The notes below the pieces were generated by a model. The model was given only the letters and a program-made list of their open reading frames with translations. It did not search any database and was not told the origin of the DNA. From contig CM075989.1 of assembly GCA_038087875.1 (NCBI GenBank), forward strand, positions 16,494,001 to 16,558,000: a stretch of DNA of 64,000 nucleotides, given 5' to 3'. Position numbers and translations under genes: made by a program. This DNA comes from Malacoraja senta. Lineage: Eukaryota. The number at the start of each line of letters is the position of its first letter. Positions within the stretch are counted from its first letter, which is position 1. Positions 5,205-53,170 of the stretch are shown piece after piece.

Positions 5205-5300
5205 GATAGACACAAAAACCTGGAGTAACTCAGCGGGACAGGCAGCATCTCTGGTGAGAAGGAATGGGTGACGTTTCGGGTCGAGACCCTTCTTCAGACT
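5205..5300 (-). mobile_element. Penelope-like terminal-repeat fragment
   Basis: Homologous to the 3' end of the GIY-YIG element at 26227-27148. Confidence 0.8.
5270..5297 (-). ncRNA. Minimal hammerhead-ribozyme-like motif
   Basis: Minus strand reads CTGAAGA-A-GGGT(CTCG)ACCC-GAAA-CGTC: CUGANGA core, 4-bp stem II, GAAA and GUC triplet. Confidence 0.65.
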
Positions 5301-5309
5301 TCCACACAT

Positions 5310-5520
5310 CTACATACTAGGCACAATTTACAGTTGTCCGTTAATTTACTGACCTATAATTTTGGGATATGGGTGGGGGGAACCAGAGTCTCCAGAGGAA
5401 ACCCATGCTGTCACAGGGAGAATGTGCAGACTTTGTACAAGTCGCATCAGGAATCACGATTGAACCCGGGTCAGTGGAGTTGCGAGACCACAGCTCTACC
5501 AGCTGCATCATTGCGCTGCT
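5310..5520 (-). mobile_element. SINE (HE1/V-SINE-like), diverged
   Basis: Reverse complement of the tRNA head and V-domain core. Confidence 0.7.
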
Positions 5521-6502
5521 GTGTTCGTACTGTTTACTGTTATGCCTGGTTATGTTTATGAGACTGTGGGGCGTCCGCAATGTTTCGGAACTTTGCGCTT
5601 TGCTTCTGTGTACACAATACGCAGGAATCGGAGGAGTAACTGCGATACCAGAGTGAGTGTGTCCCATTTTGTGCCCTATTACTGCTGAGCTTAAAATAGA
5701 AGGTGATGTTGCCAGGGTGGAGTTGGGGTGACACCCATCTGTTGTACACAAACTTCTCAATCTGAACCAATTGGAGCTTGGAGCTGATTTGCAATTGCTA
5801 ATATAACAAAATCTCTGTACTTTTAAATAAATTCTGAAAATAATGCAGTAACTGTTCACACATTTTCATTGTAGTCCCTTGGTTTAATATTCCCCTGCTT
5901 CCTGCTTTCATTCGCAAACCAAAGGTTTCAACTATTCTTCAGATTGATGCAGAGAATTTTTACCTCTGGGCTGCAATAATTTAATATCTCCACCTTCATC
6001 TCTCTTCCTGCATGTGAGGCCTTCTGTTGAAAAGTGGATGCCAGCAACAGTCTGTCACCTCATGTGCAATCAAGCTCATCTAATATTTATTTGAGCTGGG
6101 AATTTCTTACCTGTTTTTTGCATTTCATGCGTTACTTAATTCAACTTGTGTTCGGGAATGGCTGAGGCAAATCTCTTACGTTTTTAAGGTTCTTCTTTTA
6201 AATCTCTTGAGTTTTGCAACAAGGTAGATTTGTTTTACCCTCAAGCAATTGAAGGTGGGCAGAAATTTATTTTAATTCTAAAATTGCCAATTTGATTCAA
6301 CTTTAGGCAGAATAGTCTTTTAATTTTATATGAACACCACCATGCCATAATGTTTGGGAAAATCAATCAGTTACAATTAACCACATTTCCCTTTTGCTTC
6401 CAAAACAGTCAAATTAAGCAAGGTTTGACGTTTATGATGCTGTACCTCCCTGGAGTGTTGCTGTAACTGGCAATGATCATGTACCAGTTGCTACCCCACT
6501 AC

Positions 6503-6785
6503 TGGGGCAGCTCAGTGATGCAGCGGTGGAGTTGCTATCTTACAGTGCCAGAGACCCGGGTTCGAAACAGAGTTTGTACGTTCTCCCCGTGACCTGCGTG
6601 GGTTTTCTCCGGGTGCTCAGGTTTCCTCCCACACTGCAGAGACATACAGCTGTGTAGGTGAATTGGCTTTGTTAAATTGTACATTGCCCCTAGTGTGTGT
6701 AGGATAGTGTTAGTGTGCAGGGACCGCTGGTCGGCACAGACTCGGTGGGCCGAAGGGCCTATTTCCGCGCTGTATCTCTAACCAA
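6503..6785 (+). mobile_element. SINE (HE1/V-SINE-like)
   Basis: A/B-box head (gcagcggtggagttgct...gggttcga), V-domain and CR1-like tail. Confidence 0.9.
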
Positions 6786-8904: not shown

Positions 8905-9025
8905 GGTGATCCGAAACGTCACCTATTCCTTTTCACCAGAGTAACTCTACCTGACCCGCTGAGTTACTCCAGCTTTTTGTGTCTATCTTCGGCGTAAACC
9001 AGCATCTCCAGTTCTTTCCTACACA
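8905..9025 (+). mobile_element. Penelope-like terminal-repeat fragment
   Basis: ccgaaacgtcacctattcc...gacccgctgagttactccagc; only the 3' half of the hammerhead motif is present. Confidence 0.75.
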
Positions 9026-10329
9026 GATTGTCGGACTCGTTGCACTGGTGATGCTTATTGTTTGTTGTACAATTTAAAACCTACTTTAATGATTAATCAC
9101 AGCTCATTCCCAGTGGCATCATTTAATGGGCAAAAGTGTAGTGTCAGCAAAATATGGTGCCGTCACGCAAATTTGACCGCAAACAAAACGGAAATATTTC
9201 AGGGTAAGATGAAGATGTGGGATCGCTCCACAGTTAAATAATCTCTTGAGAATAAAGACAGTGCAAGGCTCACTGATAATTGCTACCTCCCCTGCTTTCA
9301 GAACTAATTGGATGTGGTTCTAGTGGTGAGACTGGATTCAAGAGTAGTTTTCAAATGGGAAGGAGGAAATCGCATGCCTTCTTGGGAAGAGATATTGATT
9401 AGTAGGACTGGATGTTACAATCCCGAAGCTTCTTCACCACAACTGACACTCGGTATTCTTGGGGGTGACCACTAGGTGATTTTTCTACCAATCAGACACA
9501 TCTTCAGTTGTGTACCTCAACATCACTGGGTGTTTCAGCCTTTTATCACAAGAGACCCTCAGTCGAGGCAGGCCCACCGCAGGGTGATCAGCCCTGGGTG
9601 TGTGTCTTATGGTTAGCCTCTAGATGGTCACGTGGCAGCCCAGACAGCATCTTTTCTCTTCAGCCACAGCCAGTGACTGCTCCATTCTGCTTTTTTCCTT
9701 CCCTCTTTCTACTGCTGACTGTGGCTGGTTGGGCTCTGGACTCGTGTCCGTTGGTGGGACAGTACTTGGTTGAGCTTCGCCTTGCACTATCATGGACTTG
9801 TTTCCTAATTGTGCATTTTTTTTGCACAATCTTTTTTTCACCATCTTATGGAATTTAAGTGAGATTTATGCATGATTTAGGTATAATTTATGGTTTTTGG
9901 GTGTTATCCGTGTGCCTGTGATGTTGCTGCAAGCAAGATTTTCATCATGCCTCTACCTCACCATGCTTGTGCATGTCACAATAAACTCCACGACTTGAAT
10001 TGACTTGTCAATACTGCATTTTGTTAGGGCATGATAGGTGGCCTTTGCAATATGATTCTGATTACGAACAATAAGATGTAGAAATTTAGCATTGATCACT
10101 CCTGCTAAATGGCTGCACAATTATCTCTTGCCCATTGTACTTATTTCCTGGTTTTCCATTCCTACTTCACTGTAAACAGAGATTGGGATGGAGTGTAACC
10201 AGTGCTTAATACTTGCTCTCTTACACAATTAGTAAAGGCAATCAAAGGTGAATTTCTAACCCAAGACTTCAAACTTTGTGGCAATAAAACCTTGTAACTA
10301 TTGGCTGGTGGTGGACTAGCAATGCAACT

Positions 10330-10655: not shown

Positions 10656-11325
10656 AAAGTGTGCACTGTTAGAGTTAAAAAATTACATGTGAAGGAATAA
10701 AATGCTGGGCTCACTTTTTGGCAAAGAAATTGAAGAGGCAGTGGAATTCTGGTAGGATAAAATTAGATGCACTAACATAACATTGCGACAAGCACAATAC
10801 TTTGAAGTTCTAATGTTTTGCTTGTGCTTCAGTCCACTTGTTGTCAGTCCTGGTGCATTCTTCCTTAACACAGACTCGGCAAAGTGCACTGCCTCAGCAC
10901 TTGTCTCACCATTTTAACATTAAGTACAACTGATTTTCCATATCCTCCCATCATTATAAATAACCCCTCACACGCCTCCTGTTTCCCTTTCTATATTCAG
11001 AGAGGTGTAACGTAATTTCAAAATAAAATTCTCTGAATCACTTGCACCACCTGCCACCTTCCAAAGTTGTTCTGAGACTGCAAGTGCTTTTGAAAGATAG
11101 CCAGATAGTAACGCAGCATCCTGCTTGTCCCGCTGAGTTATTCCAGCACTTTGTGTCTATCTTTGGAATATACCAGTATCTGCAGTTCCTTTCTACACAA
11201 GTGTTTTGAAATGCAGTCGCTGCTATGAAACCAAACAGCCAGAATGCAGTTGATTGAACAGTGAGCACTGAAGGAAATGACTATACAGCCTGATTATAGT
11301 GGTGAATGGTTGCTAACAATGTTAG

Positions 11326-11495
11326 ACACAGAATGCTGGAGTAACTCAGTGCGACAGGCAGCATCTCTGGAGAGGAGGAATAAGTGATGTTTCGGGTCGA
11401 GACCCTTCTTCAGTCTGTCCCGCTGAGTTACTCCAGCATTTTGTGTCGCTGGAATATTCAATTTAAACCAGCATCTGCAGTTCCTTCATACACAT
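11326..11495. mobile_element. Foldback Penelope-like terminal-repeat element with hammerhead-like motif (11386-11413, minus)
   Basis: Inverted arms gacacagaatgctggagtaactcag / ctgagttactccagcattttgtgtc. Confidence 0.75.
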
Positions 11496-11610
11496 GTTAA
11501 GAATGTTAGTCATGTTGGAACATAAGAATCTCTTGCATCCTTACAAAGTGGCCAAGGGATTTTGTGTCTCATCCAGAAGACCGCCCTAAGGCTGGGCAGA
11601 GTTGCCCAGG

Positions 11611-12768: not shown

Positions 12769-12968
12769 NNNNNNNNNNNNNNNNNNNNNNNNNNNNNNNN
12801 NNNNNNNNNNNNNNNNNNNNNNNNNNNNNNNNNNNNNNNNNNNNNNNNNNNNNNNNNNNNNNNNNNNNNNNNNNNNNNNNNNNNNNNNNNNNNNNNNNNN
12901 NNNNNNNNNNNNNNNNNNNNNNNNNNNNNNNNNNNNNNNNNNNNNNNNNNNNNNNNNNNNNNNNNNNN
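12769..12968. other. Assembly gap (200 N)
   Basis: Run of exactly 200 N. The round length suggests a scaffolding join of unknown true size. Confidence 0.98.
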
Positions 12969-16639: not shown

Positions 16640-16945
16640 ATCAGAAGGGTTCCGACAAAAATGTTCCCTATCCATTTCCTCCACAAATGTTGCCTGACAT
16701 GCTGTTTTCCTGCAGCACTTTGTGTTTTGCTGCCACTTTCAATGACTTATGCATCTACACTCACAGACCCCCCTGCACCATATCTTAGTAGAACAGTATC
16801 ATTACTGTCGACCCTCAGAAGAAGGTCTTGTCTTGAAACGTCACCTATCCATGTTCTCCAGAGAGGCTGCCTGACCGGCTGAGTTACTCCAGCACTTTTT
16901 CTTTTGTGTAGTAACCAGCATCTGTAGTTCTTTGTTTCCACTACT
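16640..16945 (+). mobile_element. Two degenerate Penelope-like terminal-repeat fragments
   Basis: cagaagaaggtcttgtcttgaaacgtcacc...gctgagttactccagcac. Confidence 0.65.
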
Positions 16946-22270: not shown

Positions 22271-22495
22271 TCTGTTAAATAGGACCAGGAGTCGGCCATC
22301 AGTCCCTTTGTCCCTGCATGCCATTGATCAAAATCACAGTTGATCGCCTGCCTCTACAATATCCCCCATTACGATGGAGGCTATTGAATCTCTATTCCAA
22401 TTTTTGATCTAAGACGAACCACAACTATTATCTAGTAAATGTTATTGTTAACTGAAAAATCACACTGGTCATAATTTGTTTACATTTTAACTCAC

Positions 22496-22664
22496 CAAAA
22501 CTAGTGGATCGATTTGCCAGACTGGTATAAGAAGGTCCTCCAGGTGAAGATGTGGACACAGGACTGGAAAGGGGACTGAAGGTAGCTGGGTCTGCAGGAA
22601 AACTATGACTTGATCCCATGGCAAAAGGTGGTGACTGTCCTTTACTGGATTGGGAGGCCACTTG
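22496..22664 (-). CDS. ARNT2: ARNT2 coding exon (169 nt)
   Basis: ttttttcag|CAA GTG...TTT G|gtgagt encodes QVASQSSKGQSPPFAMGSSHSFPADPATFSPLSSPVSTSSPGGPSYTSLANRSTSF. Phase 0 in, phase 1 out. Overlaps ORF 22428..22661. Confidence 0.95.
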
Positions 22665-25081: not shown

Positions 25082-25139
25082 TGTCTTGAATATTAGATAA
25101 ATGATCTGCAGAACTGGCTAATTCTGACCGAAACAGAAA

Positions 25140-25785: not shown

Positions 25786-25817
<32 letters not shown>

Positions 25818-35795: not shown

Positions 35796-35929
35796 CTGAA
35801 GAAATATTAAATTAAATTATCAAACAATGAAATACTACAATAATAGCTTTCAATATGCAGCACTTTTAATGTAGGAAAACATTCTACTGTGCTTCACAAG
35901 AACAATATCAACCAAAGTGTTGTTCTTAC

Positions 35930-36900
35930 AGGTATCATAGAGTCAGAGACATACAGAGTGGGAACTTCCCCATGCCAACCAAGATGCCCCATCCAAACTA
36001 GTCCCACCTGCCTACATTTGCCCCATATCCCTCTAAACCTATCCATGTATCTGTCCAAACGTCTGTTAAATGGTGTCATAGTACCTTCCTCAACTACCTC
36101 CTCTAGCAGCTCGTTCCATATACCCACCATCTTCTATGTGAAAAAGTTGCCCCTCAGGTTCCTATAAATCTTTTCCCTCTCACCGTAAACCTATGTCCTC
36201 TGGTTCTTGATTCCTCTACTCTGAGTAAAAGGTGCATCTACCCCATCTATTCCCCTCATGATCTTATATACCTCAATAAAATCACTCATCCTCCTGCACG
36301 CCAAAGAAAAAAGTCCTAGCCTGATCAACCTCAGGCCCTCAAGTCCTAGCAACATCCTCGTAAATCTTCTCTGCACTCTTTCTAGCTTAACAACACTTTT
36401 TCACTGTAGCAGGATGACCAAAACTGAACACAATTCTCCAAATGTGGCCTCACCAACATCTTGTACAACTGTAACATAACATCTAAACTTCTATACTACT
36501 CAATATCTTGACTGATGAATACAAATGTGTCAAAAGCCTCTTGAACCCCCTATCTGGGGTGGAAGATTGCAACCTGTTTCAACTAATGCAATCAACTCAA
36601 CGTGCACAAACGGAAGATCAAATAGAACAAGTTGTCCAACAACTTTAGGCTGTGCACGCCACACGAAAGAAGAAGAAGAACCCCCTATCTACCAGTAATG
36701 CCACTTTCAAGGAACTATGTACCTGTACTCCGAGATCCTTCTGTCTACAACCCTCGCCGAGCCTTGCCATTCACCATGAAGATCCTGCCCTATTTTGACT
36801 TCTAGCACCTTGCACGTATCTGTATTAAACTCCATTAACTTTCCCTCAGCACACTTTCCGAACTAATCAGGATTTTTTGATAAGCATCTTTGCTATCTAC
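35930..36900 (-). mobile_element. CR1 LINE 3' portion
   Basis: ORFs 35894..36130 and 36191..36376 (QRRFTRML...LGLFSL...FIEVYKIMRG; WNELLEEVVE). Confidence 0.85.
36556..36677 (+). mobile_element. Short retroposed insertion with (AAG)n tail and 13-bp TSD
   Basis: TSD gaaccccctatct at 36543-36555 and 36678-36690; ends cacacgaaagaagaagaa. Confidence 0.8.
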
Positions 36901-39184
36901 ATTTTGATATTGAGGGAGGGAAATTCACAGTTTATGATTCATGGACCTGAAGGCACAGCAGAAGAATGGCCATTATGAGTATTGAACAAGTTCAAGTTCA
37001 AGTTTCAAGTTTACATTTATTGTCCATTGCACCAATTGGTACAGTGAAATTTGGGTTGCCATACAGCCAAGAGACCAAAATAAGAGTATAGATGTTTCAC
37101 AGGATTATAGAGGTGGAAAGGGTCACATAAATGGGGAGGATTAAGGCCATAAAAGTGATTTGAGAACAAGAATAAGAATTTTGAAATACAGTAATTGACA
37201 AATCTGGATGCAAAATTAGATCAGTGCAGATCCAAATGGAGATGGAGATGAATAAATAAAAACCTTGGTGAGAATTGGATTTAAGAAGAATTCTTGATGA
37301 TTTCTAGTTCATGGAGGGTATTAGATGAGAAAATGAACTGTTACATTATGAAATCACAGGCTGAATCACCCTAGATCAGTCCTGCACCTGATGTCCCAGT
37401 GTGCCCTCATTTACCTTGGTCTGGGTGTGGAGAACTGAATTGAACTTATTATTATCTTAAATATTGAGATCAGTCGTTCAGGAGACATTTATTGTTGAAG
37501 TATTAAACTTTATCGCCAAAAGAATGTGGATGCTGGTTCAATTATAATTGCTAGTTTAAAAAAAAATCAGGGCAAGGGGTATAGATCAAGCGCAAATAAT
37601 TTGAGTTGAAGTATTGGTCAGGCACGGTCTAAGTTAACGATGGGATAGGTTCAATGGATTGAATGACCTACTCCTGCTCTTAAGTTCCAACTAATTATAA
37701 TTGGATCGTTCTAGCCTTTTGTTAAATGAATAGTTACATGAATTTCCATACAATTTCCAATTAAACTGCTTACATTTTCACCTGAAGATCTAAAATGCAG
37801 ACATGTTCAATGAAGGTTGCAGTACACTTTGTAATTGCAGTTGGGAATACTACTGTTCACATTCATCATAAGTGTTCAACTAACAATATATTAAGTGCTT
37901 GGTGACGTTAAACACATTGTTTTCAAGCCTCCCCTTACATGGAAATTTAAATGACATGTAAATAAGAATGAGCTTACTTAGTATATTAATGATTCAAATG
38001 GAATAAAACCCCTATAATTGACAATATCCATGAGAGCTGCCTCTTCTGTGCAATTATAAATGGAAAAAGCTATGCCAGAAGCTGGCCCTTCACAGTTCAA
38101 ATGCAACAGGTAAGTAAATCTATCATGAACTAATACCTAATACTCAATTTGTCATTATCATTGGTAATTAAATTATTGGTATGGTGTTTTTAAGACATGC
38201 AGATACTAAGACAGCATGTCTGGAAATAAAAATAATTGATGATTAGCCAACCATTATTGGCCATGAAGAATGGACCCATTGCTGGCAAGTCACTTTTCTT
38301 TCCCATGTCCAAGCTATCCTATAGAATACAATGGCCGCGAGGCAAGGTACACATAAGTAAACCACTAGTGGTAAAGCTTGTGAACTTCTTTATATTTGAG
38401 ATCCTAATTATATTGCATCAACATTCCCTGGACTCACCGACATGAGGTCGTTTTTCTCTGAAAAGAGATTGAGAAGGGTCTGGATCTGCACTGCTTAGAG
38501 CTGATCTAATTAAATTGTATAAAATTCATAAAGGCTTCCAGTATAGGGGGTAGGAGGTTGTCTTCTCTAGCCTGGGGAGTCTAGAGCTAGAGTCGATGAT
38601 CATTGACTATTTAAGTCTAAGTTTGAGATGCTCTACTTCAGAAGGCCATAGATGTTCAGCTGTTGAATCGATTCAAGACAAAAATGAATACGTTTTTGGA
38701 TCTAAGAGGATTAAAGGATATGGGGAAGTACAGAATGATGGCAACAGGGAAGAGGATCATATTGATTGATAGGATCAAAACTTATGTATTATTGTTTCTA
38801 TATGAATATTCCATAGTGAGCAAGTAAAAACAAAACTCCCGGTGGAGCGGTTTGAATTTGTTGGGTTTAATCTAAATGTGCTTTTGGGTATGAAAATAGT
38901 GGCCAAATCAATGGCTCAAGATCTAAACATTACACCTTCCTTGCTGAAGTTGCAGAAAGTTTCAAAAATTCCTTGCAGAATGTTTCAAATGAGTGTTGTT
39001 ATAGGAATAGGTACAACTGGGCAAAAGCTTGTGCAGTTTTACAGGCAATTTGTTTGTAATTGCTTTGGTTTCCAATAATAAAAATATGACAACATAGAAA
39101 GTGGCCAGTCAGCCTATAGTTGTCATGCCAGGTGACAAAGTGCTATTCAGACAATGCTGTCTTGAGCACCTGGTCAATATCTTT

Positions 39185-39393
39185 GTAAACAGGCACAAAA
39201 TGCTGGAATAACTCAGCTGGTCACAGCATCTCTGGAGAAAAGGAATAGGTGACATTTCGGGACAAAACCCTTCTTCAACCCCAAAACGTCACCTATTCCT
39301 TTTCTCCTGAGATGCTGCCTGACCCGCTGAGTTACTCCAGCATTTTGGGTCTATCTTCGATGTAAACCAGCATCTGCTGTTCCTTCCTACACA
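39185..39393. mobile_element. Foldback Penelope-like terminal-repeat element with 10-bp TSD
   Basis: TSD caatatcttt at 39175-39184 and 39394-39403; inverted arms around decayed hammerhead motifs. Confidence 0.8.
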
Positions 39394-39580
39394 CAATATC
39401 TTTAAGTCTTGCCTCTTCAAGTATAAATCTAGGCACCTTTTAAAGGGTTTCAGCATCTACCACCTTTCCAGGCAGTAGGTTCATACCCCTACTACTCTCC
39501 AGGTGAAATTACTTTTTCATCTTTTTCCTAATCCTTCTATCATTTTTTTCTTAAATAACAACACACAATATATAGTTTAC

Positions 39581-39680
39581 CTGAATGTTTGTCCTGCACG
39601 TCCTGGCTGGAATGAACTTCCTTGTGAGTAGATCTGTTGGCTTCCCGCAGCTGACGGTGATGACATTGGCTTTTTTTCAC
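39581..39680 (-). CDS. ARNT2: ARNT2 coding exon (100 nt)
   Basis: aaatag|GT GAA AAA...TTC AG|gtaaac encodes (G)EKKPMSSPSAAGSQQIYSQGSSFQPGRAGQTF(S). Phase 1 in, phase 2 out. Confidence 0.95.
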
Positions 39681-40447
39681 CTATTTAAAAAACATCAATA
39701 GTACAAGTATTGAATTACAGGAAATTTACAGCTTGGAAGGATGCCATTCAGCCCATCAATTCCATAGCATTTATGCGAAAGAATAATCCAGTTAGTCTCA
39801 CTACCCTGCCATCTCTTTATGGAAATTAATGATGTTTAATTAACTGTGGACTTTTCTGACATATGACAATGGAACAGAATCCTGTCTACCAGCTGAATTT
39901 AACTTGCACCGATTCACATTATGCCTGTATGCTCAAAAGGGATTGTGATCATTGCCTACACTATTGTTAGAAGTTCAGCTCCATTCGGAAACATTCACCA
40001 GTCTCAGTAAACAATAACATTAGTCCTTAGAAGCACCATTGGAAAACTTAATTAAAGAGGTTAAAATCCAAGAGATATTGAATGCTCTTGGGCCCAGAAA
40101 GCCCTCTGGTTATAGAGCACTTCCATATTTGGTAATTGGTTTCTCCTGTTCTCCTGTATAATAGTCAGTCTAGAGTGCGAGCTTGGAGGAGGTATATGCA
40201 CAAAGTTTAGATGCAAAGTGTTCAGCCTTGTCAATAAACCATGATTATTTTTTCCATATATTGAGTCCACTGGGATATGTTAGCATCCCTTATAGAAACA
40301 GGTTCCTCTCAAATGGTTCATGCTGTACATAGCGTTATGCTACAGAACAGATTGCTGCATTTAAACAGAGATGGAAAAGATGATATGCTCAGACAACCCA
40401 CTCACAATGGCAATCTTCTGGGAAAGTGAAGTAAAGTTAGAAAGTAA

Positions 40448-41182
40448 TGGGCCTGTCCCACTTAGGCGATTTTTCAGCGGACTGCCGGCGACTGTCAGGT
40501 TGCCGGCAGTCGCCTGAAAAACCGGCAACTGTCAGAGTGGAACACACACAAACACATCGCTTCTTTCACCAGCCCGTTATGCAGGCGGGGACACGGCAAG
40601 TGGGGGGAGCGCTGTCTAAAAAATTCACACGGTACAAAGCCAAGGTGAACAGACACACACCGCAATGAACAGGAAGGTTGGTGCTGTAAAAAGACGGCTA
40701 AAGCACAGTGTACGCTATGTCCTTTAAAAGAGGGGTGGAGAAGGGGGGGGAGAAGGAGTGGAGACAACTTTTAAGAAGCCAGAGATACACGGCTGTGAAG
40801 CTCGGCAGACATTTAACATTACCGGTCGGTTATCCTTGGTTCTGAAAACTGCTGCTTACCTTTTTTTATCCCGAATAAAAAAGTCAGCACCGGCTCCAAC
40901 CTACGAGAACCTTCGACCTCCTGGCAACTCATTAGAACCTCCTGGCGACCCACCTATGGTACGAGAATTCTCGCTATTCTCCATGGCGGCTTCATTCTAG
41001 TCACCGCTAATTTTTCAACATGTTGAAAAATTCACGGCAACCATAATGAGGCCGTGACTAGTTCCCAGAATGCGGGAACTCCTCATGACCATGAAGGCGA
41101 CTCCCGGCAAACACCCGCGAACATGTGGCGACCATGTGGCGACTGCATAGTCTCCTGCAGTCGCCCAAGTGGGACAGGCCCA
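40448..41182. mobile_element. Non-autonomous PIF/Harbinger-type DNA transposon (735 bp)
   Basis: TAA|TGGGCCTGTCCCACTT(A/G)GGCGA ... TCGCCCAAGTGGGACAGGCCCA|TAA; CpG-rich, no transposase ORF. Confidence 0.88.
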
Positions 41183-42559
41183 TAAGGGTCATAGTACAGC
41201 AGCTTGCAGTAACAACATAAACTGAAGTTGAGGTCACTGTGTGAGGATGCACTGGAGTGAAGAAGAAACAGTTGTTGCCAAGACATAGCTTTTGATCAAT
41301 AACAAGCATGTTGAGATGAAGAAATATAGTGACACTACTTATTGTAGCAGTGAAATGGAGCAAGCTTCATGGTGAAAGATTAGCTACAGCAATTGAAGTT
41401 GGACTGGGAAAATAAATGTAGTTTGAAGATAGCAAAGTCACCCAGTTGAATAAATAGGAATACATGACAAAACACTCCTAATATGCTGTTTGAGGCCATA
41501 AGCTGCAACTCCACATTAAACCTGGTTGGCAATCTCTTCATCACCAGTCATGACGAGTTCCTTATGCACCAAAAGAGCAGATCAGACAGAAAATGGAGAA
41601 GCACAAAATGTTGGTAACACTTTTCATAGTGATTGGATCAAAATGCAATGAAGCTAAAAGTGTTTCTTGATCAATTAAGGTGAAGATAATAGATAAAACC
41701 CACTAGTAAAATCACAAACTATTTATATTGAGCTGACTGGAACAAAAGTATTTACAAAATTAGATTAGTCTCATGTGTGTGAATAATTATATGCCATCAA
41801 GAGAATCAATAATATTTATTCATCAATAAGCATAAGAGACTATAAAAACAAACTTACATGTGGTATTAACTTGTTCCCTAAACACTTCCAGGCCACAATG
41901 GATAAAATTTGAAAAGAATTGTTTAAATCTCGGGATGATATTCTGATTATTACATGTACTTAAGTATAATAATTTATTGTCAACATCTACTAAGAAATAA
42001 TAAATTCTGCAGAGGTAATGAAGCAATTATACAGGGATAATGTGAAACTAAACAGAAATTCACAATGTGAAGTAGTTGATCTTGGCTTATGAGCAGATGC
42101 ACATGGTTTGCAGCCTACACAAAACACACACAAACCATTATAAAGGTGCTGAAGCCTGTAAATATACCTGGACTGGGTTCATATTTGGAAACATATAATA
42201 CACATACTTTCTACTAAAGTTGACAACAGTATTCTTGTTCCTTTGGTACCGACAGAAGCAGGATGCCCTATGGACCTGGGGCTACGAGCACAATGTGCTT
42301 ACAACAAATGTTAAATACCAGAAGGTTAACAGTTCTTCTTGTTCATTAGAATACCTTCTGTGAATTAAGGTGAGTGTCCGTTGCTTCATACTCTGACCAT
42401 GGGGCAGTTATCAGCCATGTGATGTTTGGCGGTGAGGAAAAAAACCTTTTACCTTTCTACTTGATGAAAATGAACAAACTAATAACTTAGAAGGAAGTTT
42501 TTTATGTTATATCAGTTGTCAAGAAGTTCGGTGAATTCCTTCTTGGAAGCACATTAATA

Positions 42560-44330
42560 GCCATTATTGTCAATTTTGGGCCCAAAATCCATCATTGCAC
42601 CACTGGCAGCACCAAGAGCACAGCAATGGGCCATCCTTTTGTCTCAGCATGCCAAAAAAATAGAACACTAGACATTGGAGGTGAATACAGTGGCAAATAC
42701 ATTGTTAAGATTACCTCACCAATGCTCCAAGTACTATTTGTATCCAAACACATGTGAGTAATGAATGTCTGATGACAGCTTTGGAAACTACACAGCAAGC
42801 ATGGAAATACTGGATGGGCATCATGCCTACAAACACACTTCCAGAAGCTGGTCGGAGTTGGGAAAACGGACAGATGAAGGGCCAAGACTGTTTCATATCT
42901 GCCAAAATGAGTTGTCATGATACCAAGGGTGTTTAAAATGGGGCTTGTGTGTGGAATCTGGATATTTTAAAACCTAGGATAAATACAGCATATACTGGGA
43001 TAGAAGCAATGAAGGCTATTGCTCATATTTTTGTAGAGAGCCAGGTTTGGAATGATATCTCTAAGAGCTGACGTTAATATACTGCCAGAAGTGGACAGCA
43101 TTACAATCAGTGGAGCATTCTTCAGTTGCAGGGGCTACAGCTATAGAATGCACAATGAGCCCAGCATCTGGTCAAATAGCAGGTGGCAGTGTGTCTCTGG
43201 GGAAGGGCTTGCTTATCATGGCCATTTAGACAAGTTCAGAAACTAGACTGTTACTTTTGACTATGGCTCGACCTGTGAGAAGATATATCAGGTCTTTTAA
43301 TCCGGTGAGTCTTTTAATTTTAGAGTCTGAACCTATGGTTTGTTTCACACTTGTACATTACCTTTGTGAGCAATACTTAGTTTACAGAAAAAAAACTTTT
43401 TTTTAAAAAAACTAGTGAAGCAAGTACTGTATTTACATATGTGGACACACTGAGCTCCTATTGGATGATGGTGTCCTGTACCAGAGTAAAATGTATGTAG
43501 TTTATATGTTAACAAATCATTGAATCCCCTTGCACAAATTAGCACAGAGGTCAAAGAAGCAGCATCAATGACAGTATGTTGTCATGGAGGTTTATGCCCC
43601 AAGGACCTGAACAGAAAGTTGGTTTAATGACCTGACATCGGGAGGGTTCAGCAAACACACAAACAAATCCCATCTCCTAATAACTGCGCCACTACACTCT
43701 GTTTTCATGAGAAGATGGTGGACAACAGCTGCCAGCAGCAAAATGATGGAACCCTTTAAAAGATGGAACCAGGACCAAGCATAGAAGATCATTGGTCTTG
43801 TTCTTCCCTACTCCTTCCTTAACAATCATGTTTTTTCAGTTGCACTCCTTCCCACCCTGGCACTGAAGACAGCCAAGAGGTTGAGTTTGTCTCACTTTGG
43901 GATGTGCGTCAGGAATTTTCTACGGCTTGAGTTAAAGTCCTCCATTTAAATCGGTTGGGGTCTGCACAGATGACCTTAGCTCTATGTTCATGAGTTGGAG
44001 GATGATAAGTTCACTAGTTCTACGGGGGTGTGACACTGAAATGCTAGACTTCCTCATTTTATGATGGAGAAACTCACTCCACAAATATGCCATTCTTCTT
44101 CCATTTGATTCTCCCAGAAGAAGTGCATCCACATTCTTGCTCTTTAAACCATCCTATCTCAACCAGTGTGGTGATGTTGATGTCAAAGTTCCTGAGCTAT
44201 GAGAGCAGGGAAATGCCACTCAGGACTGTCACTGCTGGGACTATTCACAAGGATCCTAACATTCCAAGTCCTGAACTTCACATTGTGGAGTGGAAGCTGC
44301 CCATGTGTGGCTTCTTTTAATAAGAGCTGG
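42560..44330 (-). mobile_element. Degenerate RTE-clade LINE fragments (APE endonuclease region)
   Basis: ORF 44183..44401 ends VKFRTWNVRILVNSPSSDSPE...ALIAQEL (RTE-type TWNVR motif). Further remnants include SWFHLL and DTNSTW. Confidence 0.6.
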
Positions 44331-45559
44331 CTGTTGCATGCCAGCTGGCACCAGGATTTCACAGAGCAAGGTCTTGATTTAATTGCAAGTGGGGCTAACA
44401 TGACCGGAGATCAGGCCCTGCTGCATGGATGTGAATACTCACAGGTAAAGGTGGTGCAAATGTCACCTTGCATGTGCATACTCATTTGCTCGCAGCTGCA
44501 CAGGCATACTCTGTGGGCTCAGGCACAGCAGCCTTGCCCATCGTATCCTTCTCACCCAGTCACCAACCTAAACCCAACTGCACACTGGGTCCTCATTCCT
44601 GAACCTCGGTTTTGTAGGCACACACAGCAATTGGAAGCCGACATGAATGCCAATTTTGCTAGATCAATGTAGTGTTTTCAATCTTCTTCTATGTACATGG
44701 AGCTGCACTTATAGAGGTATGAAAGGAAATAAAATATCAAATGAAAGTCACTCAGCTAATCTAAGTACTATGCAACAAAAGTACTATAGACAATAGACAA
44801 TTACGTATGTGGATGAAGAGAAAGAATCGTTTTCTAACCATTAAGTGTGCAGCAGCAAAAGGTGTACAATGGTGCACGTTAGTTACAAAATATTGTTTTT
44901 AACGGCAAGTAAAAATGAAGGTTTACTTTAGCTTTTAATACATGAACTTTTAGGGTAAACACAGAATATTAATTATGCAGTAGAGCACTGGTATTAACAC
45001 ACTAAGATTTATGTTGTGTGTTATGTTGGCGTGACTATGAATGTGTGCTTTATAAATGCAAGACTGATTCCACATGTAAAGGCAGGATGCAGTGAGGAAT
45101 ATATATACACAGAAGCCAAAGCTTGAGAATCTAAGAAAGTGTGCAAATGCAAAAAATATGTATTCAAAATTTTACTTCATATTAATAGGGGAAAGTAGCA
45201 CATCAAAGGAAAATAGAGACTTGAAAGTGAATTGGGAGTTTGACATTGTAAAGTATTTCTATGTTACTATCATGTATCTATTTGGACAGCGATTTGGGTG
45301 GACAGTGCAAGAATAGCAATTAAAATAAGTTTGAATACAACATAGCTACCAGTGGGATTAGATGAGCCCATTTGCTTATGGAGAGGGTCATACAGGAGCC
45401 CTGATTCTCCTGCCACCCACTCACCCAAAAGGTAGCCAAAGAATCTACCAGCACATCTTTGGTATGTAAGGAAACCAAAATACCTGATGGAAACCTACAA
45501 GACCCCAGGGAAGACATGCACACTCCACACAGCCAGCTTCCACGATCAGTGATAGGGAA

Positions 45560-46200
45560 GGTGCTAGAATCTAAAAAAGTAGGGTATTTTTTAAATGGTG
45601 ATACATTGGGTAATGTTCTTGTTCAAAGGGGGTTAAGCACCATGTATACAAGTCACAGAAAGCCAACATCCAGATACAGCAAGCAACGGGGAAGGAAATT
45701 TGCCGTTTTTACAAGCAGATATGAGTGCAGGATCAAAGATATCATATTGCAATTACAAAGGGCTTTGTTGAGACCACGCCTGGAGTACTGTGTATGGTTT
45801 TGACATATTTTCTTAAACAGACATGTACTTGTCACAGAGGGAGTGAAGCACTAGAATACTTCTTGAGATGGGATATTTCAAAAGACATTTGGATAGATAT
45901 ATGGATAGACAGGTTTAGAGGGCTATGGGTTAAATGCAGGCAAATAGGACTTGCTCAGTATACCAACTTGGTTTGACATGGACAAGGTGCGCCGAAGAGA
46001 AGGTTTCTATGATGTATAACTCTATGGGAGGTTTGCTGTGAACTCCTGTATTTTGGGGAGTTTAGAAGAACAAACCAAGATCACTTTGATATTATACAAT
46101 TCCTATAGGGCTTGGCATGCTGGATGTGTTCCTGACTGAGGACTCCAGAACCAGATAAATGGTGGAATAGGTTCATGCAATCAAATGGCCTACTTCTGCT
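45560..46200 (+). mobile_element. Old CR1 fragments
   Basis: KDIILQLQRALLRPRLEYCVWF. Confidence 0.65.
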
Positions 46201-46734
46201 CTTACCATTCTCTCTCTCTCTCTCTCCCCTCGTTCACCAGAGCCAACCTTCTCCCTTTTCCATTTTGAATATCTCTCCAAGAAATTACAGTAAATGCCCT
46301 AGAATATTTTATTATCCAATTTTTCCGACCACCACTAAGACAGCTTAGATTGGCCCCATTATTATTTCTAGTTTTTAAGTTTCAGTTTGGTTCAGATAAA
46401 AAGCCTTTAATTTTGTCTTTTTCTTATTTTTCCCTACACAGACTCAAAGTGGAAATAGCCTTATATTTGTAACCACCACAATTGCTTGCACTTTCTCCAT
46501 AATGGTGCCATTGCTCCGATGAGTAGAAACTGTGCCCTGGCAACAGGCAGACTACAGGCCTTTTGGAACAGCCTTTGTCCATGGCTACAAACCTGCTGGA
46601 GACCAAGGGCAGGGGAGCCTCTGGGCAATCACAGGACCACAAAGTGTAAACTGTGGTCCATTCCTAATCAAAGGCATGGCATCAAATCAACCCAGCTAAT
46701 CTCAAATATCATCCTGCACCTTCAATAAGTCTGT

Positions 46735-47000
46735 TTTAGTTTCAGTTTTGGAAATACGGAAAATAGAAGCATGAAAACAGGCCTTTCGGCCCACCGAATG
46801 CATGCTGGCTAACAATCACCCGTACACAAAGTTCTATCCTACATGCTTTTACAGAGGAAAACAGAGCACCCGGAGAAAACTCACGTGGTCACAGGGAGAA
46901 TGTACAAACACCCTACAGACAACACACGTAATCAGGATCGAACCCGGGTCACTGGTGTTTTAAGGCAGAAACACTGCCACTCTGCCACTGTGCTGCCCTA
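46735..47000 (-). mobile_element. SINE (HE1/V-SINE-like)
   Basis: Reverse-complement head, core and tail. Confidence 0.8.
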
Positions 47001-48129
47001 ATGCAATAGTTTTTTTTTGTTCTTTTACTTGCCGTCACAAACAGTATACTAAACCACAATCTTAGTCACTGCATGCCAGTTTCTCCTTAATTTCCATTTC
47101 CTATTCCTGAAAGCAAACTTAGTTATATTATTTTCTCTTTGCCAGTGCAGAAACTAAGCTCCCGTTTATAGCCGCCCTGGTCTCTTCTTTCCGGATCTGG
47201 CTACACCACACTGTACTCCACATAATAAAAGATTGGCTTCCAGTCCCATCTCTGTTTTGCTCCCCTCATTTGAGGATAAAATCACATTCCACAAGCAGAT
47301 AAAAATAAAAGTGTAATAAGGATTTTTGATGATCTGAGTCTACACCATCTCACTCTGGCAAAGACTGTAGGAAAATGCAATGCAGACAAAATGTAGAAGT
47401 AAATTAATCAAAACGTCAAAAAATAGATGATTGAACCAATTTGGCAACAGAGCCATATTCTCATTGCCACACTCTCTAAATGTTTGGGTTTAGAAGCATT
47501 TTCTCTGCAGTCTTCCTGAAATCTGGCTTCAGCCTTCAGCAAAACAGAGCAGTGGAAAACAGATCAGCTAGAATCCCTGCTCCTTGGCTCACAACCAAAC
47601 AAGGACTGAGGTCTGATAGAAATCCAGAGTCTCCATGAAGACAGTTATGGCATAAATACTGTCTTGTGCATTTGCCAACCTACACAATAAATATTATAAG
47701 TCGCTAACAGTTCGCTAAAGCTGTTCAGCAAGCACTGTCAACAGACATTTAATAAGGGTGCACAGACTGAATAAAATTGCCTTTTGCTGAATTTTCAAGA
47801 TTCCTATCAGTTAGAAAAAATTACAACAGACATTTATCTATCCACAGCAGAGATGCTGAGATACCTTGGGCTCCAACCAAGTACAAGCGAACTGGCACTA
47901 ATGCTAATAGTTTCACTGCTTAGTAAGCAAAATAAAGACGGGAAAGATTTATTTCAGAGAGATTCATTATTTGAGAATTAAACTGAGGTCTCAATTTACA
48001 GCTAGGAACGTTCTGTATATATGAGTATTGGTGCGTTTGAAGTAAGGCATTAACTGCAATTGCAATTATTATCACAGTTCTCTCCAGCAACAATTTACTT
48101 TCAAGTTGAACTGGGTCTCAAATTCAACT

Positions 48130-48363
48130 GTGTTAAAGAAGGAACTGCAGATGCTGGAAAATCGAAGGTACACAAAAATGCTGGAGAAACTCAGCTGGTG
48201 CAGCAGCATCTATGGAGCAAAGGAAATAGGCAACGTTTCGGGCCGAAACCCTTCTTCAGACCCTTCTTCAGTCTGAAGAAGGGTTTCGGCCCGAAACGTT
48301 GCCTATTTACTTCGCTCCATAGATGCTGCTGCACCCGCTGAGTTTCTCCAGCATTTTTGTGTA
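48130..48363. mobile_element. Young foldback Penelope-like mini-element with hammerhead motifs on both strands, TSD up to 14 bp
   Basis: TSD tctcaaattcaact at 48116-48129 and 48364-48377. Arms 48169-48261 and 48271-48363 (93 bp, 3 mismatches by eye). Confidence 0.9.
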
Positions 48364-48619
48364 TCTCAAATTCAACTCTCTGACTAAAGGCAGCCTAGAA
48401 AATAACATGCCTCACAATGTGTTAACGGCAGTCGATATGTTAAAACTAACCCTACAAACGCCTGTCATTTATATGATGGTCTAATGTATGAAATGTAGTG
48501 GAAGCCCCGAATGCAACACAATTCCCAGAGGGAAACGGAACATCTAGAGCTTGTCTGCATTAAAAGGGTATTAGGTGTGTTAGAAGGTTAGAAGTGCATA
48601 AATCCTGAAATGTCACCTA

Positions 48620-49320
48620 TCTCTGGCTTCGAGGAGGCCAGTGGGAAGTTGGTGGGAGTCCTAAAAGATTTTTAAATCTTCTCTGTCCACAGGTGAGGAG
48701 CCAGATGACTGTTGGACACCCAACATGGTACCATTATTCAAGAAGGGCAGCAGGGATAAAGCCGGTAACTACAGACCTTTGTAACTAAAATCAATAGTTG
48801 GGAAATTATTGGAAAAAATGTCTTAAGAGACATGATTGATTACAGCCAACCATGTCATCTCTGGCTGCCCGCTCTCCCACCCACCAAATGGAGCTGAGGG
48901 CCTGGCAGACATTGACGCAGAGACAACAACCTGGCTGCTCAACACCCGGCTTGAGACTAATTATTCCTTTGGTTTATGCTTCATTCGCAAGAAGAAGAAG
49001 ATCGATTACGTTTAAAAGGCAGAGATTAGTCAAAGTCAGCAAGCACGGCTTTGTTGAGAAGAAATCGCATCCGGCCAATTTGATTGTATTTTGTGTGGAT
49101 ACAAAATATGGTTATGGAGCACAGTTGATGTAGTCTACATGATATCAGTAAGACCTTTAATAAAGTCCTACAGCGGCGAATGTTCTGAAGGTTAAAGGTC
49201 CATGGGATCCAAGGCATGTTGGCAAATAGGATTCAAAATTGGTCTGGTGAGAGAAGGTAAAGGATAATTATGGAGGGTTGCTTTTGTGCATGGAAGCCTG
49301 TGCCCACTGATGTGCCACTG
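48620..49320 (+). mobile_element. Old CR1 RT-region fragment
   Basis: MVPLFKKGSRDKAGNYRPL...HGFVEKKSH remnants. Confidence 0.7.
48844..49000 (+). mobile_element. Vingi/ingi-like LINE extreme 3' end
   Basis: Encodes ANHVISGCPLSHPPNGAEGLADIDAETTTWLLNTRLE, has a (GAA)n tail, and an imperfect TSD gattgattac/gatcgattac. Confidence 0.65.
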
Positions 49321-49324
49321 TATA

Positions 49325-51885
49325 TGGAGCGGTAGGTATGTTTGATGGTTGTGCATCGGTGGTTGATGGTGTTTGGACCTCCAGTGGGACAGGAGACTAG
49401 TCGATAGGATTTTAGTACCAGTCTTAGAGTTGACCTGGTTGACATTCCCGATTATGATGAACAAGGCCTCGGGGTACATTGTTTCAAGGCTATTGCTAGC
49501 GGCGTACAGCATAGCGGTGTAAACAATAGTCAGGATAACCAAATAAATTTCCCTCAGCAGAGAGTAGGGACAGCTCTTCATCATTAGTTATTCTAGGTCC
49601 AGGAAGCAATTCTGAACTCACAAAAATCACCTCCTCTGAGCACCGCAAAGTGTTGATTAAGAAGCAGAACCCTCCGCCTCTTACCTTGCCAGAGGATGCC
49701 ATAGGGTCCAACCAGTGAATTCAGAAACCCTCTGAATCTATAGCACAGTCAAGTGACGTGACTCACTGCTTTTGAGTCAGTGAACTGGTCTCTATTTAAG
49801 GACTCAGCGGCCAACCTAAACGAGGACACCACTATTATCACAGACCTCAAGAAGAGGGGTGGTTGTCTTGACGCCATGGTGCTAAGGTTTTCGTCTCCTT
49901 CCTGTCGCGTCATTGTTTGAGATCTGGCCCTCTAGTGTCATCTGCAAACTTGTAAATGGAGTTAGAGCAGAATTTGTCCAGACATTTAAGAGTACAGTTG
50001 CTTGCAAAAGTATTCATACCCCTTGAACTTTTCCACATTTTGTCACGTTACAACCACAAACGTAAATGTATTTTATTGGGATTTTATGTGATAGACCAAC
50101 ACAAAGTGGTGCATAATTGTGAAGTGGAAGGAAAATGATACATGGTTTTCAAATTTTTTTACAAATAAAAAACTGAAAAGTGTGGCGTGCAAAAGTATTC
50201 AGCCCCCCGAGTCAATACTTTGTAGAACCACCTTTCGCTGCAATTACAGCTGCAAGTCTTTTGGGGTATGTCTCTACCAACTTTGCACATCTAGAGACTG
50301 AAATTTTTGCCCATTCTTCTTTGCAAAATAGCTCAAGCTCAGTCAGATTGGATGGAGAGCGTCTGTGAACAGCAATTTTCAAGTCTTGCCAGAGATTCTC
50401 AATTGGATTTAGGTCTGGACTTTGACTGGGCCATTCTAACATATGTATATATGCTTTGATCTAAACCATTCCATTGTAGCTCTGGCTGTATGTTTAGGGT
50501 CGTTGTCCTGCTGGAAGGTGAACCTCCGCCCCAGTCTCAAGTCATTTGCAGACTCTAACAGGTTTTCTTCCAAGATTGCCCTGTATTTGGCTCCATCCAT
50601 CTTCCCATCAACTCTGACCAGCTTCCCTGTCCCTGCTGAAGAAAAGCATCCTCACAGCATGATGCTGCCACCACCATGTTTCACAGTGGGGATGGTGTGT
50701 TCAGGGTGATGTGCAGTGTTAGTTTTCCGCCACATATAGCGTTTTGCATTTAGGCCAAAAACTTCAATTTTGGTCTCATCTGACCAGAGCACCTTCCTCC
50801 ACATGTTTGCTGTGTCCCCCACATGGCTTGTGGCAAACTGCAAACGGGACTTCTTATGGCTTTTTTTCTACAATGGCTTTCTTCTTGCCACTCTTCCATA
50901 AAGGCCCGATTTGTGGAGTGCACGACTAATAGTTGTCCTGTGGACAGATTCTCGCACCTGAGCTGTGGATCTCTGCAGCTCCTCCAGAGTTACCATGGGC
51001 CTCTTGGCTGCTTCTCTGATCAATGCTCTCCTTGCCCGGCCTGTCAGTTTAGGTGGACGGCCATGTCTTGGTAGGTTTGCAGTTGCAATCTGACTGAGCT
51101 TGAGCTATTTTGCAAAAAAGAATGGGCAAAAATTTCAGTCTCTAGATGTACAAAAGCTGGTAGAGACATACCCCAAAAGACTTGCAGCTGTAATTGCAGC
51201 AAAAGGTGGTTCTACAAAGTATTGACTCAGGGGGGCTGAATACTTTTGCACGCCACACTTTTCAGTTTTTTATTTGTTGGTCTATCACATAAAATCCCAA
51301 TAAAATACATGTACGTTTGTGGTTGTAACGTGACAAAATGTGGAAAAGTTCAAGGGGTATGAAAACTTTTGCAAGCCACTGTATATGGGGAATACAGTAA
51401 GGGGCTTAGAATACAGCCTTGTGGGCCATCGATGTAGAGAATTATCATGGAGGATAATTCATTGCATGCCCTTACATGTTTCTGTCTATGGGTCAGAATA
51501 TTGACGATTCAGTTTCAGAGTGGGTGTTGGGTCTAGGAGTTTGGAAACGGGTTTAGTAGGAATTATGATATTGAAAGCAGAGCTATAGTTAATAAATAGG
51601 AGTCTGACAAAGGGTTTCTTCATAAAGCAAGTAGGAGTCTCAGATTGGAGTCAGGAGAGGTTAAAGATGTCTGCGAATACTCCTGCCAACTTGTCACGGC
51701 TGGGTACTCCATCCGGGCCAGTCGCTTTCTGAGGATTCACTTGGAAAGGCAAATCCAATGCCTTCAATGATGTCTGTAGGTACATGTGTATCTGAGGATG
51801 TTGGGAGTGGGTGCCGGCATTCCACTCATCTTTTGTTCAAAATGAGCATAGAATGCATTAAGCTGGGCAAGGAACAATGCGGCAA
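49325..51885 (-). mobile_element. Rearranged Rex1/Babar-like LINE fragments (endonuclease and RT), interrupted by Tc1
   Basis: GKVRGGGFCFLIN and YPEALFIIIG remnants. Removing the Tc1 restores PQGCILSPLLYSPYTLKCLDKFCSNSIYKFADDT. Confidence 0.7.
49995..51381 (-). mobile_element. Defective Tc1/mariner transposon (IR/DR type) with TA TSD
   Basis: TA|cagttgcttgcaaaag...cttttgcaagccactg|TA. Transposase remnants [28 protein letters not shown] and WPSQSPDLNPIENLW on minus (50212-51085), with stops and a frameshift. Confidence 0.95.
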
Positions 51886-51889
51886 ATAT

Positions 51890-52270
51890 ACAATAGACAA
51901 TAGGTGCAGGAGTAGGCCATTCGGCCCTTCGAGCCAGCACCGCCATGGCTGATCATCCCCAATCAGTACCCCGTTCCTGCCTTCTCCCCATATCCCCTGA
52001 CCGCTATTTTTAAGAGCCCTATCTAGCTCTCTCTTGAAAGCATCCAGAGAACCCACATCCACCGCCCTCTGAGGCAGAGAATTCCACAGACTCACCACTC
52101 TCTGTGAGAAAAAGTGTTTCCTCGTCGCCGTTCCAAATGGCTTACTCCTTATTCTTAAACGGTGGCCCCTAGTTCTGGACTCCCCCTATATCGGGAACAT
52201 GTTTCCTGCCTCTAACGTGTCCAAACCCTTAACAATCTTATATGTTTCAATGAGATCCCCTCTCAATATT
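51890..52270 (-). mobile_element. CR1 LINE 3' end
   Basis: VSLWNSLPQRAVDVGSLDAFKRELDRALK; same subfamily as 11611-12230. Confidence 0.9.
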
Positions 52271-52849
52271 CTTGTGGATCAGCCACATCAACACTGTAGC
52301 CACAAGGGCAGGTCAGAGACTTTGTAACCTGGGGTAAATGAAGCACCTCCTGACACCTCCAAACATTTTTCCCATCTACAAGGCACAAGTCTATGAAGGA
52401 CTTCCTCAGATACACATGTACCCACAGACATCATTGAAGGCAAGTGTTGGTCTAAATCATGGTAATCCCTACCCAACAGCACTGTGTAAGGAGTTTTACC
52501 AGAGACTGTTGCTGTTCAAAGAGGGGACTCATCATCACATTCTCAAGGGAAATTAATAATGGATAATAAACACACATATCACATCAATCAGGACTGAAAG
52601 AATATAATAAATCAGACAATAGATCCTGAACGTGACAAAACTGGAACAGAAGCTGCACAGCCTGTATACAAATCAGGAAATACTGAGCCAAAGGGCAGCG
52701 AACCCTTTAAACCTGAAAACAAAGGAAGTACTGCAATGATGAAAGTCACAGGAATCTTTTAGGAAACAGGTTTGTCGAGAATTATGTTGTAGATGACCTT
52801 TTTAATAACTGGTACCTGCCAATTACGTCAATCGCAAGGTTCCTATGTG

Positions 52850-53170
52850 GTGTAACTCAGCGGGACAGGCAGCATATCTGGAGAGAAGGAATGGGTGACG
52901 TTGTGGGTTGAGACCCTTCTTCAGATTGAGAGTCGGGGGAGAGGGGGACCAGAGATGTGGAAGGGAAAAGTGTGAAAATGACAGATCAAAGCAGACGATG
53001 TTCAAGGAAATGTAGAATGGTTCATTGTTAGCTGAGGGGAAGATGATGAGGCATACAGTCAGTAAAATTAATCAGGACAGTGAAACTAGTTGTACAACCT
53101 AGGGTGATGGAGGGACAGAGAGAGGGAATGCAAGGGTTACTTGATGTTAGAGAAATCAATATTCATACCG
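52850..53170 (-). mobile_element. Penelope-like 3' region with broken hammerhead motif
   Basis: Minus reads CTGAAGAAGGGTCTCAACCC-ACAA-CGTC (GAAA mutated). Confidence 0.7.

Follow-up and report, generated by a model that had tools for sequence, protein, structure and literature searches.

The window analysed here, a 64,000-nucleotide stretch of Malacoraja senta DNA, carries scattered copies of a motif resembling a minimal hammerhead ribozyme (min-HHR), some of them inside introns of ARNT2, and the question raised by this locus is whether such copies cut the host pre-mRNA or are merely carried along with the mobile element that brought them. From the evidence below we consider it highly probable (about 0.85) that the motif is the minimal hammerhead of a Neptune-type Penelope-like element (PLE) terminal repeat (pLTR), scattered as short 5′-truncated copies, and that the ARNT2 intronic copies are neutral passengers and leave the pre-mRNA uncut.

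A pattern search of the 64-kb window recovered all five motifs that a first-pass annotation had listed as intact (5270, 11386, 26293, 48232 and 48273), each on the strand given there, with seven matches at up to three mismatches versus 0.00 expected from 100 shuffles. Four of the five pass the full min-HHR descriptor and can indeed be called intact, whereas 11386-11413 fails it because it reads ACAU instead of ACGU. Every decayed or partial copy placed near 3940, 8910, 14385, 16820, 18195, 39255, 52900 and 61695 is visible, and further ones absent from that list lie at 63251-63334 (−), about 16640-16720 (+) and 11118-11200 (+). The window is not enriched: it has four exact cores where the genome average predicts 1.8 (P=0.11). 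A hammerhead search, which the annotation had proposed, was divided in its outcome: an Rfam scan of the window gave no hammerhead match at E values up to 10, and the min-HHR descriptor gave the four copies above. The only Rfam models that did match were miRNA models, on inverted repeats and below the gathering score.

The exons of the host gene, ARNT2 (span 22491..63998), were confirmed on the minus strand, and the predicted protein P0001 shares 89.6% identity with Callorhinchus ARNT2 versus 61–65% with three ARNT proteins. These minus-strand exons bear out the earlier placement of the 26.3-kb and 48.2-kb copies within ARNT2 introns in the sense orientation. Of the five listed motifs, those at 26.3 and 48.2 kb are shown to lie in ARNT2, the 5270 and 11386 motifs lying beyond the 200-N scaffold gap; the last two ARNT2 exons were not found in the window or in the 40 kb beyond it. 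The 48232 and 48273 motifs belong to a single head-to-head insertion (Table 1).

Table 1. Coordinates of ARNT2, the element and its terminal-repeat copies in the window
Feature	Position	Strand	Remark
ARNT2 coding exons	63998-63852, 56811-56731, 56547-56419, 39681-39583, 35800-35654, 22667-22491	−	tblastn limits
200-N scaffold gap	12769..12968	.	ARNT2 colinearity with contig C4592 ends here
5′-truncated Neptune-type PLE (ORF end, 3′ UTR, pLTR)	26227..27149	−	ARNT2 intron, sense; 99.1% to L065
C-terminal part of PLE ORF: CX4CxxC linker, GIY-YIG endonuclease	26437..27149	−	Pfam
min-HHR, complete, C3 to H17	26293..26320	−	predicted cut between 26293 and 26292
Head-to-head solo pLTR pair, one insertion	48130..48363	.	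ARNT2 intron; 14-bp duplication 48116-48129 / 48364-48377
min-HHR, complete in sequence	48232..48259	−	sense to ARNT2; predicted sequestered in hairpin
min-HHR, complete in sequence	48273..48300	+	antisense to ARNT2
Solo pLTR, second subfamily	5207..5300	−	complete min-HHR at 5270-5297
Solo pLTR with inverted arm	11323..11500	−	motif 11386-11413, G16.2 to A, palindrome lost
Decayed head-to-head pLTR pair	39194..39394	.	ARNT2 intron
Decayed pLTR, broken GAAA box	52848..52929	−	ARNT2 intron, sense
Partial pLTR without CUGANGA half	3892..3957	−	
Partial pLTR, start inside core	8907..9032	+	
Decayed pLTR	16815..16899	+	
Old decayed pLTR	61694..61779	+	
Old decayed pLTR	63251..63334	−	additional to earlier list

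That Penelope terminal repeats carry the motif, as had been proposed, is confirmed by full-length pLTR-ORF-pLTR copies (L064, L065 and L067) with one motif per pLTR. Their two motifs stand 3,918 nt apart and flank a frame of 1,212 codons encoding RT and GIY-YIG domains (Pfam RVT_1 and GIY-YIG, E=6.5e-6 and 1.5e-3, scores under the curated cutoffs), with a CX4CxxC linker between them at residue 1091. The 26.3-kb copy is a 923-bp piece of this element with a 10-bp target-site duplication (26217-26226 / 27149-27158), and its GIY-YIG frame, immediately upstream of the motif, scores slightly below the curated cutoff (E=2.2e-4). Judged by domains, linker and layout, the element is probably of the Neptune type. 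The linker supports this assignment, being a mark of Neptune and Nematis (PMC8557442). As in the EN+ PLEs of the Neptune clade, a single ORF runs from RT through a CX2-5CxxC linker to GIY-YIG, and partial pLTR tandems, inverted 5′ copies and the optional 30–40 bp tail are all present among the element copies; the ORF here is long in comparison, with its start codon 163 nt after C3.

The element motifs carry CUGANGA and GAAA boxes together with NUH, arranged in type-I order, and fit the same consensus (CUGANGAH-G..C-GAAAN-palindrome-NUH) as the min-HHRs described by Cervera and De la Pena (2014; PMC4209133) in the pLTRs of metazoan PLEs. The extra A, which the annotation had listed as a caveat, is part of that consensus and no defect, and an unpaired base between positions 9 and 10.1 occurs in 155/155 descriptor matches. 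These matches come from 1.10 Mb of partly motif-picked loci, with 2, 0 and 0 in three resampled controls. The G10.1–C11.1 pair is kept in 239 of 326 aligned rows, and the palindrome at 15.2–16.2, which has no helix III loop, is ACGU in young copies. The earlier description as a minimal type-I hammerhead with a palindromic stem III and a 2-bp stem I stands. Five published examples also have a 2-bp helix I, at the short end of the published range. The Acropora Neptune example shares with the present motif the extra A, a 4-bp stem II, the tetraloop and the C-G-U-C end.

In PMC4209133, too, there is one motif per pLTR and solo copies predominate. No cartilaginous fish appears in the covered rows of its Fig. 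S3, and the 54,788 exact cores in the present genome (control 0) compare with about 4,000 reported in coelacanth and about 9,000 in Xenopus. The carrier is a young, very abundant PLE of a known kind in a cartilaginous fish, which extends a described feature to this group at very high copy number and makes intact young full-length elements available for the question of what PLE hammerheads do.

What has been published on PLEs suggests that the element's own transcript would be the ribozyme's sole substrate, that the ribozyme would function as a dimer by way of the ACGU palindrome, probably aided by the element protein, and that reverse transcription would begin within the pLTR on uncut RNA, so that copies retain an uncut core. 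Once inserted, the core decays, with no evident selection. It is also conceivable, but rather doubtful, that the motif is a vestige that cuts nothing, not even the element's own RNA, and is retained for another need of the pLTR such as a promoter or protein binding. The 2-bp stem I would fit such a vestige, as would the absence of any trace of cut templates among the copies and a predicted, more stable misfold in which the 5′ strand of stem II is taken up by bases past the cut site. The stem II change noted between subfamilies is one-sided (U-A/U-G), like the other helix changes across copies; the subfamily differences retain pairing (U-A/U-G at 10.4–11.4 and 2.1–1.1, with H17 being C or U), and none is a double compensatory substitution, which would also suit a vestige. 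Against a vestige are this very preservation of pairing, the published 2-bp helices I, an older family in which the layout persists and stem II has 5 bp, and the fact that subfamily differences fall on 0 of 11 catalytic positions but on 13 of the 58 columns in the flank (P=0.08).

The annotation had also suggested that sense intronic copies might pair or cleave within ARNT2 pre-mRNA, a proposal that finds no support here. In its stronger form, complete sense copies would cut host pre-mRNAs such as ARNT2 with the help of a second copy or the element protein and so alter splicing or RNA level; this would matter genome-wide if true, but the evidence points the other way and we regard it as very improbable. 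ARNT2 introns do hold six descriptor-complete sense copies (versus two antisense), an anole PLE hammerhead cleaves once the element protein is added (PMC11167929), and amniotes have conserved intronic hammerheads. However, the 26.3-kb copy has its complete sense neighbours at distances of 15.1 and 21.9 kb, its double-hammerhead is predicted at −6.5 versus a dimer minimum of −24.6 kcal/mol, and published min-HHR monomers are inactive and dimers weak (PMC4209133). The 48.2-kb pair is predicted to fold into a hairpin of about 100 bp (−194.8 kcal/mol) that buries the sense core, and in predicted folding the hammerhead is disfavoured in native context for 6/6 window copies, by nearest-neighbour rules that ignore core tertiary contacts and proteins. 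The 48.2-kb site is empty in a related organism (one contig of run X23, one site examined). The amniote RECK and CTCL hammerheads (PMC6155905) are likewise type-I, intronic and PLE-related, but they are conserved across species, whereas the 48.2-kb insertion is lineage-specific and lacks the same-site conservation of a RECK-type domesticated hammerhead.

There is also no depletion of sense copies: pLTR matches in 172.6 kb of ARNT2 number 23 sense versus 29 antisense (P=0.49), in a comparison of one gene with small numbers. Conservation of the core relative to the flank gave a mixed answer. In DNA not picked by motif, where 7/47 copies are complete, the CpG core bases decay like the flank (G12 kept in 34/47, palindrome CG in 68/92, flank CpG in 69/90). 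Non-CpG core bases are slightly better kept (422/439 versus 926/998 in a chosen flank, P=0.017), an excess for which base composition, and the requirement that alignments extend into the core, may account; weak selection on them is conceivable. The copies in ARNT2 are likely inert passengers.

The bulk of the genomic copies are short, with starts near the motif and 3′ ends at a few fixed points, and copies of 100–130 bp with similar ends are very numerous. Such numbers and ends might suggest a SINE or retrozyme family, non-autonomous and independent of the element, which we consider improbable: young solo copies share 96–98% identity with the pLTR of the autonomous element, their 5′ ends range between +9 and −7 in a local sample, many carry the inverted arms typical of PLE insertion, and copies are dispersed. 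The animal non-LTR retrozymes, a study of which includes one chondrichthyan (bioRxiv 10.64898/2026.07.22.740005), also have type-I, PLE-related hammerheads in repeats, but there the units stand in tandem and every one has a complete hammerhead, whereas the window copies are dispersed or head-to-head.

In the local sample the 5′ ends of solo copies cluster immediately upstream of the core, and copies beginning at the cleavage site amount to 1/84 young copies (1/197 in another count), which rules out cleavage as setting the 5′ ends. This scarcity is expected of uncut templates and agrees with in vitro work in which insertion uses uncut RNA (Frangieh et al. 2024, PMC11167929). The element of that work, the Anolis Poseidon element PAc, likewise has a hammerhead in the pLTR, fixed 3′ end points downstream and insertion from uncut RNA; it belongs to another clade, its ORF starts in stem II, and its activity has been assayed, whereas the present motif is known from sequence.

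The pile-up, a lead that we did not find in print, may mark the start of element transcription. Tentatively, and with less than even odds, the transcript would start at an initiator-like TCAGT three bases before the core, making the hammerhead the first 31 RNA bases, and the 100–130 bp solo copies (tens of thousands) would be strong-stop-like cDNAs, primed inside the 5′ pLTR of uncut RNA, run off at its 5′ end and inserted, in many cases as head-to-head pairs formed by fold-back. If true, this would provide a mechanism for floods of solo pLTRs and would let PLE start sites be read off genome sequences. A cap-derived extra G at the 5′ junction is unsupported (of 6,604 copies, the first 100 listed include 34 with G, counted by hand, P=0.11), as is a splice acceptor joined to a shared leader (a pyrimidine tract and CAG precede the core), the ends being spread rather than at one base. 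The 28 upstream flanks compared had nothing in common beyond inverted element arms, upstream sequence belonging to one subfamily and, in one pair, an unexplained 41 nt.

All five motifs that the first-pass annotation had placed in the window are exact in position and strand (see table), and the eight decayed or partial copies it named are all visible. With up to 3 mismatches allowed, the pattern gave seven matches, five of them exact, against 0.00 expected from 100 shuffles. Four of the five pass a generic descriptor of the minimal hammerhead ribozyme (min-HHR), and the 11386 copy, with ACAU instead of ACGU, fails it; an Rfam search returned no hammerhead model matching the motifs. The extra A and the ~2-bp stem I had been raised as caveats on activity. 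The published consensus CUGANGAH (defined with G10.1-C11.1 and a palindrome) makes the extra A a defining trait, and five tabulated examples share a 2-bp helix I (PMC4209133, definition and table). The sections of that paper compared here also describe min-HHRs as mostly solo copies, with inactive monomers and weak dimers; cartilaginous fish are absent from the tabulated rows compared. A retrozyme survey samples one chondrichthyan (bioRxiv 10.64898/2026.07.22.740005); further comparison drew on excerpts of PMC6765202, PMC6155905 and PMC2377424. Titles and abstract openings yielded nothing on hammerheads of Penelope-like elements (PLEs) in sharks, nor on PLE start sites or solo terminal repeats (pLTRs). 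The motifs are a real and known feature; the host group is new and the copy number high. Exact 27-base cores number 54,788 genome-wide (27,606 forward, 27,182 reverse; control 0), or one per 35.5 kb, so that the four in the window are ordinary (P=0.11).

The 26.3-kb motif is preceded by an open frame that matches GIY-YIG; its insert is 99.1% identical to a full-length element and is flanked by a 10-bp target-site duplication. In three of 20 long-frame loci fetched (L064, L065 and L067), each terminal repeat holds a motif, and in L064 and L065 the two are separated by 3,918 nt. The L065 frame matches RVT_1 and GIY-YIG with scores below curated cutoffs, and contains a CX4CxxC linker, of a type attributed to Neptune and Nematis in the part of PMC8557442 consulted; from sequence, we read the carrier as Neptune type. 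The 48.2-kb pair is a single head-to-head insertion with a 14-bp duplication, a layout known from PLEs (excerpts of PMC8557442 and PMC3846280). The family is very young and probably still mobile. Seemingly intact frames of ~1,212 codons occur in L065 and likewise in L063, L064 and L067, and the endonuclease part has 109,525 first-look candidates. The ARNT2 upstream intron (L216 region, gene offset 15876) holds an older family, in which CUGAUGA and the extra A go with a stem II of 5 bp. The 26.3-kb PLE sits in a LINE-type repeat bearing reverse transcriptase (RT).

Coordinates of features (window positions unless a locus is named)
Feature	Position	Strand	Remark
Motif	5270-5297	-	outside ARNT2 stretch
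Motif	11386-11413	-	outside ARNT2 stretch
Motif	26293-26320	-	intronic, sense
Motif	48232-48259	-	intronic, sense
Motif	48273-48300	+	antisense
Decayed copies	39255; 52900		intronic, sense
ARNT2 stretch matching contig C4592	12969-64000		99.8-99.9%
Gap	12769-12968
PLE insert	26227-27149
Predicted hairpin	48130-48400		sense strand
Bases past cut site	26289-26292	-	and equivalents
3′-end clusters	26227-26292	-
3′-end clusters	48130-48200
199-bp duplication, 322-bp spacing	25601-26121		GT/GCGT microsatellite; adjoins 26.3-kb insertion
LINE-type RT fragments	11526-12095; 16146-16640; others
RVT_1 match	16149-16637		E=1.4e-14
Long inverted arm pairs	49993-51383; 59608-60932		92-97% complementary, ~1.1-1.4 kb apart; resemble DNA-transposon remnants
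PLE frame	L065:2537-6196
Arrays of ~2-2.5 kb units	G000:C1:3870000-3893000; 4002000-4031000		one same-strand pLTR copy per unit, core palindrome changed

The protein used for exon mapping shares 89.6% identity with Callorhinchus ARNT2, against 61-65% with three ARNT proteins. It places six exons on the minus strand of the window; the gene's last two lie on C4592 and are missing from the window's scaffold nearby, which seems to have been joined to other sequence at the gap. Within the window C4592 matches only 12969-64000, the ARNT2 stretch of the table. The copies at 26293, 39255, 48232 and 52900 are accordingly intronic and sense and the one at 48273 is antisense, while those at 5270 and 11386 fall beyond the part that the mapping assigns to the gene.

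Whether these copies act on ARNT2 pre-mRNA, as had been suggested, is another matter, and predicted folds argue against it. The sense strand of the 48.2-kb pair is predicted to form a ~100-bp hairpin (-194.8 kcal/mol, z=-23.5). In a folding model that excludes tertiary contacts and protein, the 2.1-1.1 pair has a probability ⩽0.002 with native flanks in 6/6 window copies and reaches 0.68 only when the 48.2-kb copy is cut down to a minimal 37 nt, and the 26.3-kb double hammerhead (-6.5 kcal/mol) competes with a best dimer at -24.6. In run X23, from another organism with flanks ~95% alike, a single contig of 1,676 nt crosses the 48.2-kb site without the insert; X19 contigs run into the insert from either flank. 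Over 172.6 kb of this one gene, small numbers show no depletion of sense copies (23 sense versus 29 antisense pLTR matches, P=0.49; 6 and 2 descriptor-complete motifs). Regulation of the host gene by the copies is thus unlikely. In all three young subfamilies, the four bases that follow the cut site are complementary enough to pair with stem II on its 5′ side; the predicted off-fold could act as a lock.

G12 is needed by the hammerhead in the standard numbering, and cleavage sites follow the NUH rule. In 242 kb chosen independently of the motif, where 47/82 matches span core and flank, G12 is retained in 34/47 copies and 7/47 motifs are complete. CG is kept in the palindrome as in flank CpGs (68/92 versus 69/90), and non-CpG core positions are slightly better kept than chosen flank columns (422/439 versus 926/998, P=0.017). 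The latter counts against a reading without host function, and may stem from the way alignments were selected and from base composition. A further set of 326 unique rows came from loci chosen in part for their motif or ORF, where 382/616 matches covered the whole model. Its family-level variation is confined to loop II, 11.4 (A/G), H17 (C/U), 1.1 (A/G) and 13/58 flank columns, with 0/11 catalytic positions variable (P=0.08). Pairing is kept between subfamilies, as claimed for stem II, but the changes are one-sided only. The pattern fits, without proving, selection on the element's own ribozyme.

How solo copies arise was approached through 84 young copies, each anchored at a point past the cut site and drawn from the first 100 places listed, with duplicates, edge cases and most members of two tandem arrays left out. 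Only 1/84 begins at the cut site. Relative to the first motif base (C3), 5′ ends fall at +1 to +9 in 16/65 copies at risk and at -7 to 0 in 27/49; the two 10-base steps beyond hold 2/22 and 0/20. One array accounts for five of the 27, and a subfamily with other upstream sequence for three; 20/45 remain without them. The 14 apparent ends between -28 and -57 were probably produced by a T tract, where the extension allowed no gaps. Homology is lost ⩽9 bases upstream in 44/88 exact cores of both main subfamilies, and 6,604/54,788 keep AGT without the preceding C.

This boundary falls on TCAGT, an initiator-like word when judged against the initiator consensus. Element RNA would start there and cDNAs running off its 5′ end would give the solo copies, a tentative reading of the copy ends to which we assign a probability of roughly 0.3. 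No cap-derived G was found at the 5′ junction (P=0.11), and the same pile-up could come from fold-back at the near-palindrome TCAGTCTGA or from pausing. In the anole PLE, as described in the part of PMC11167929 consulted, the hammerhead cuts only when element protein is present, uncut RNA is used for insertion, and reverse transcription begins internally. The 3′ ends gather near three points (+81, +91 to +96, +129 to +132), resembling the two-site tail of other PLEs.
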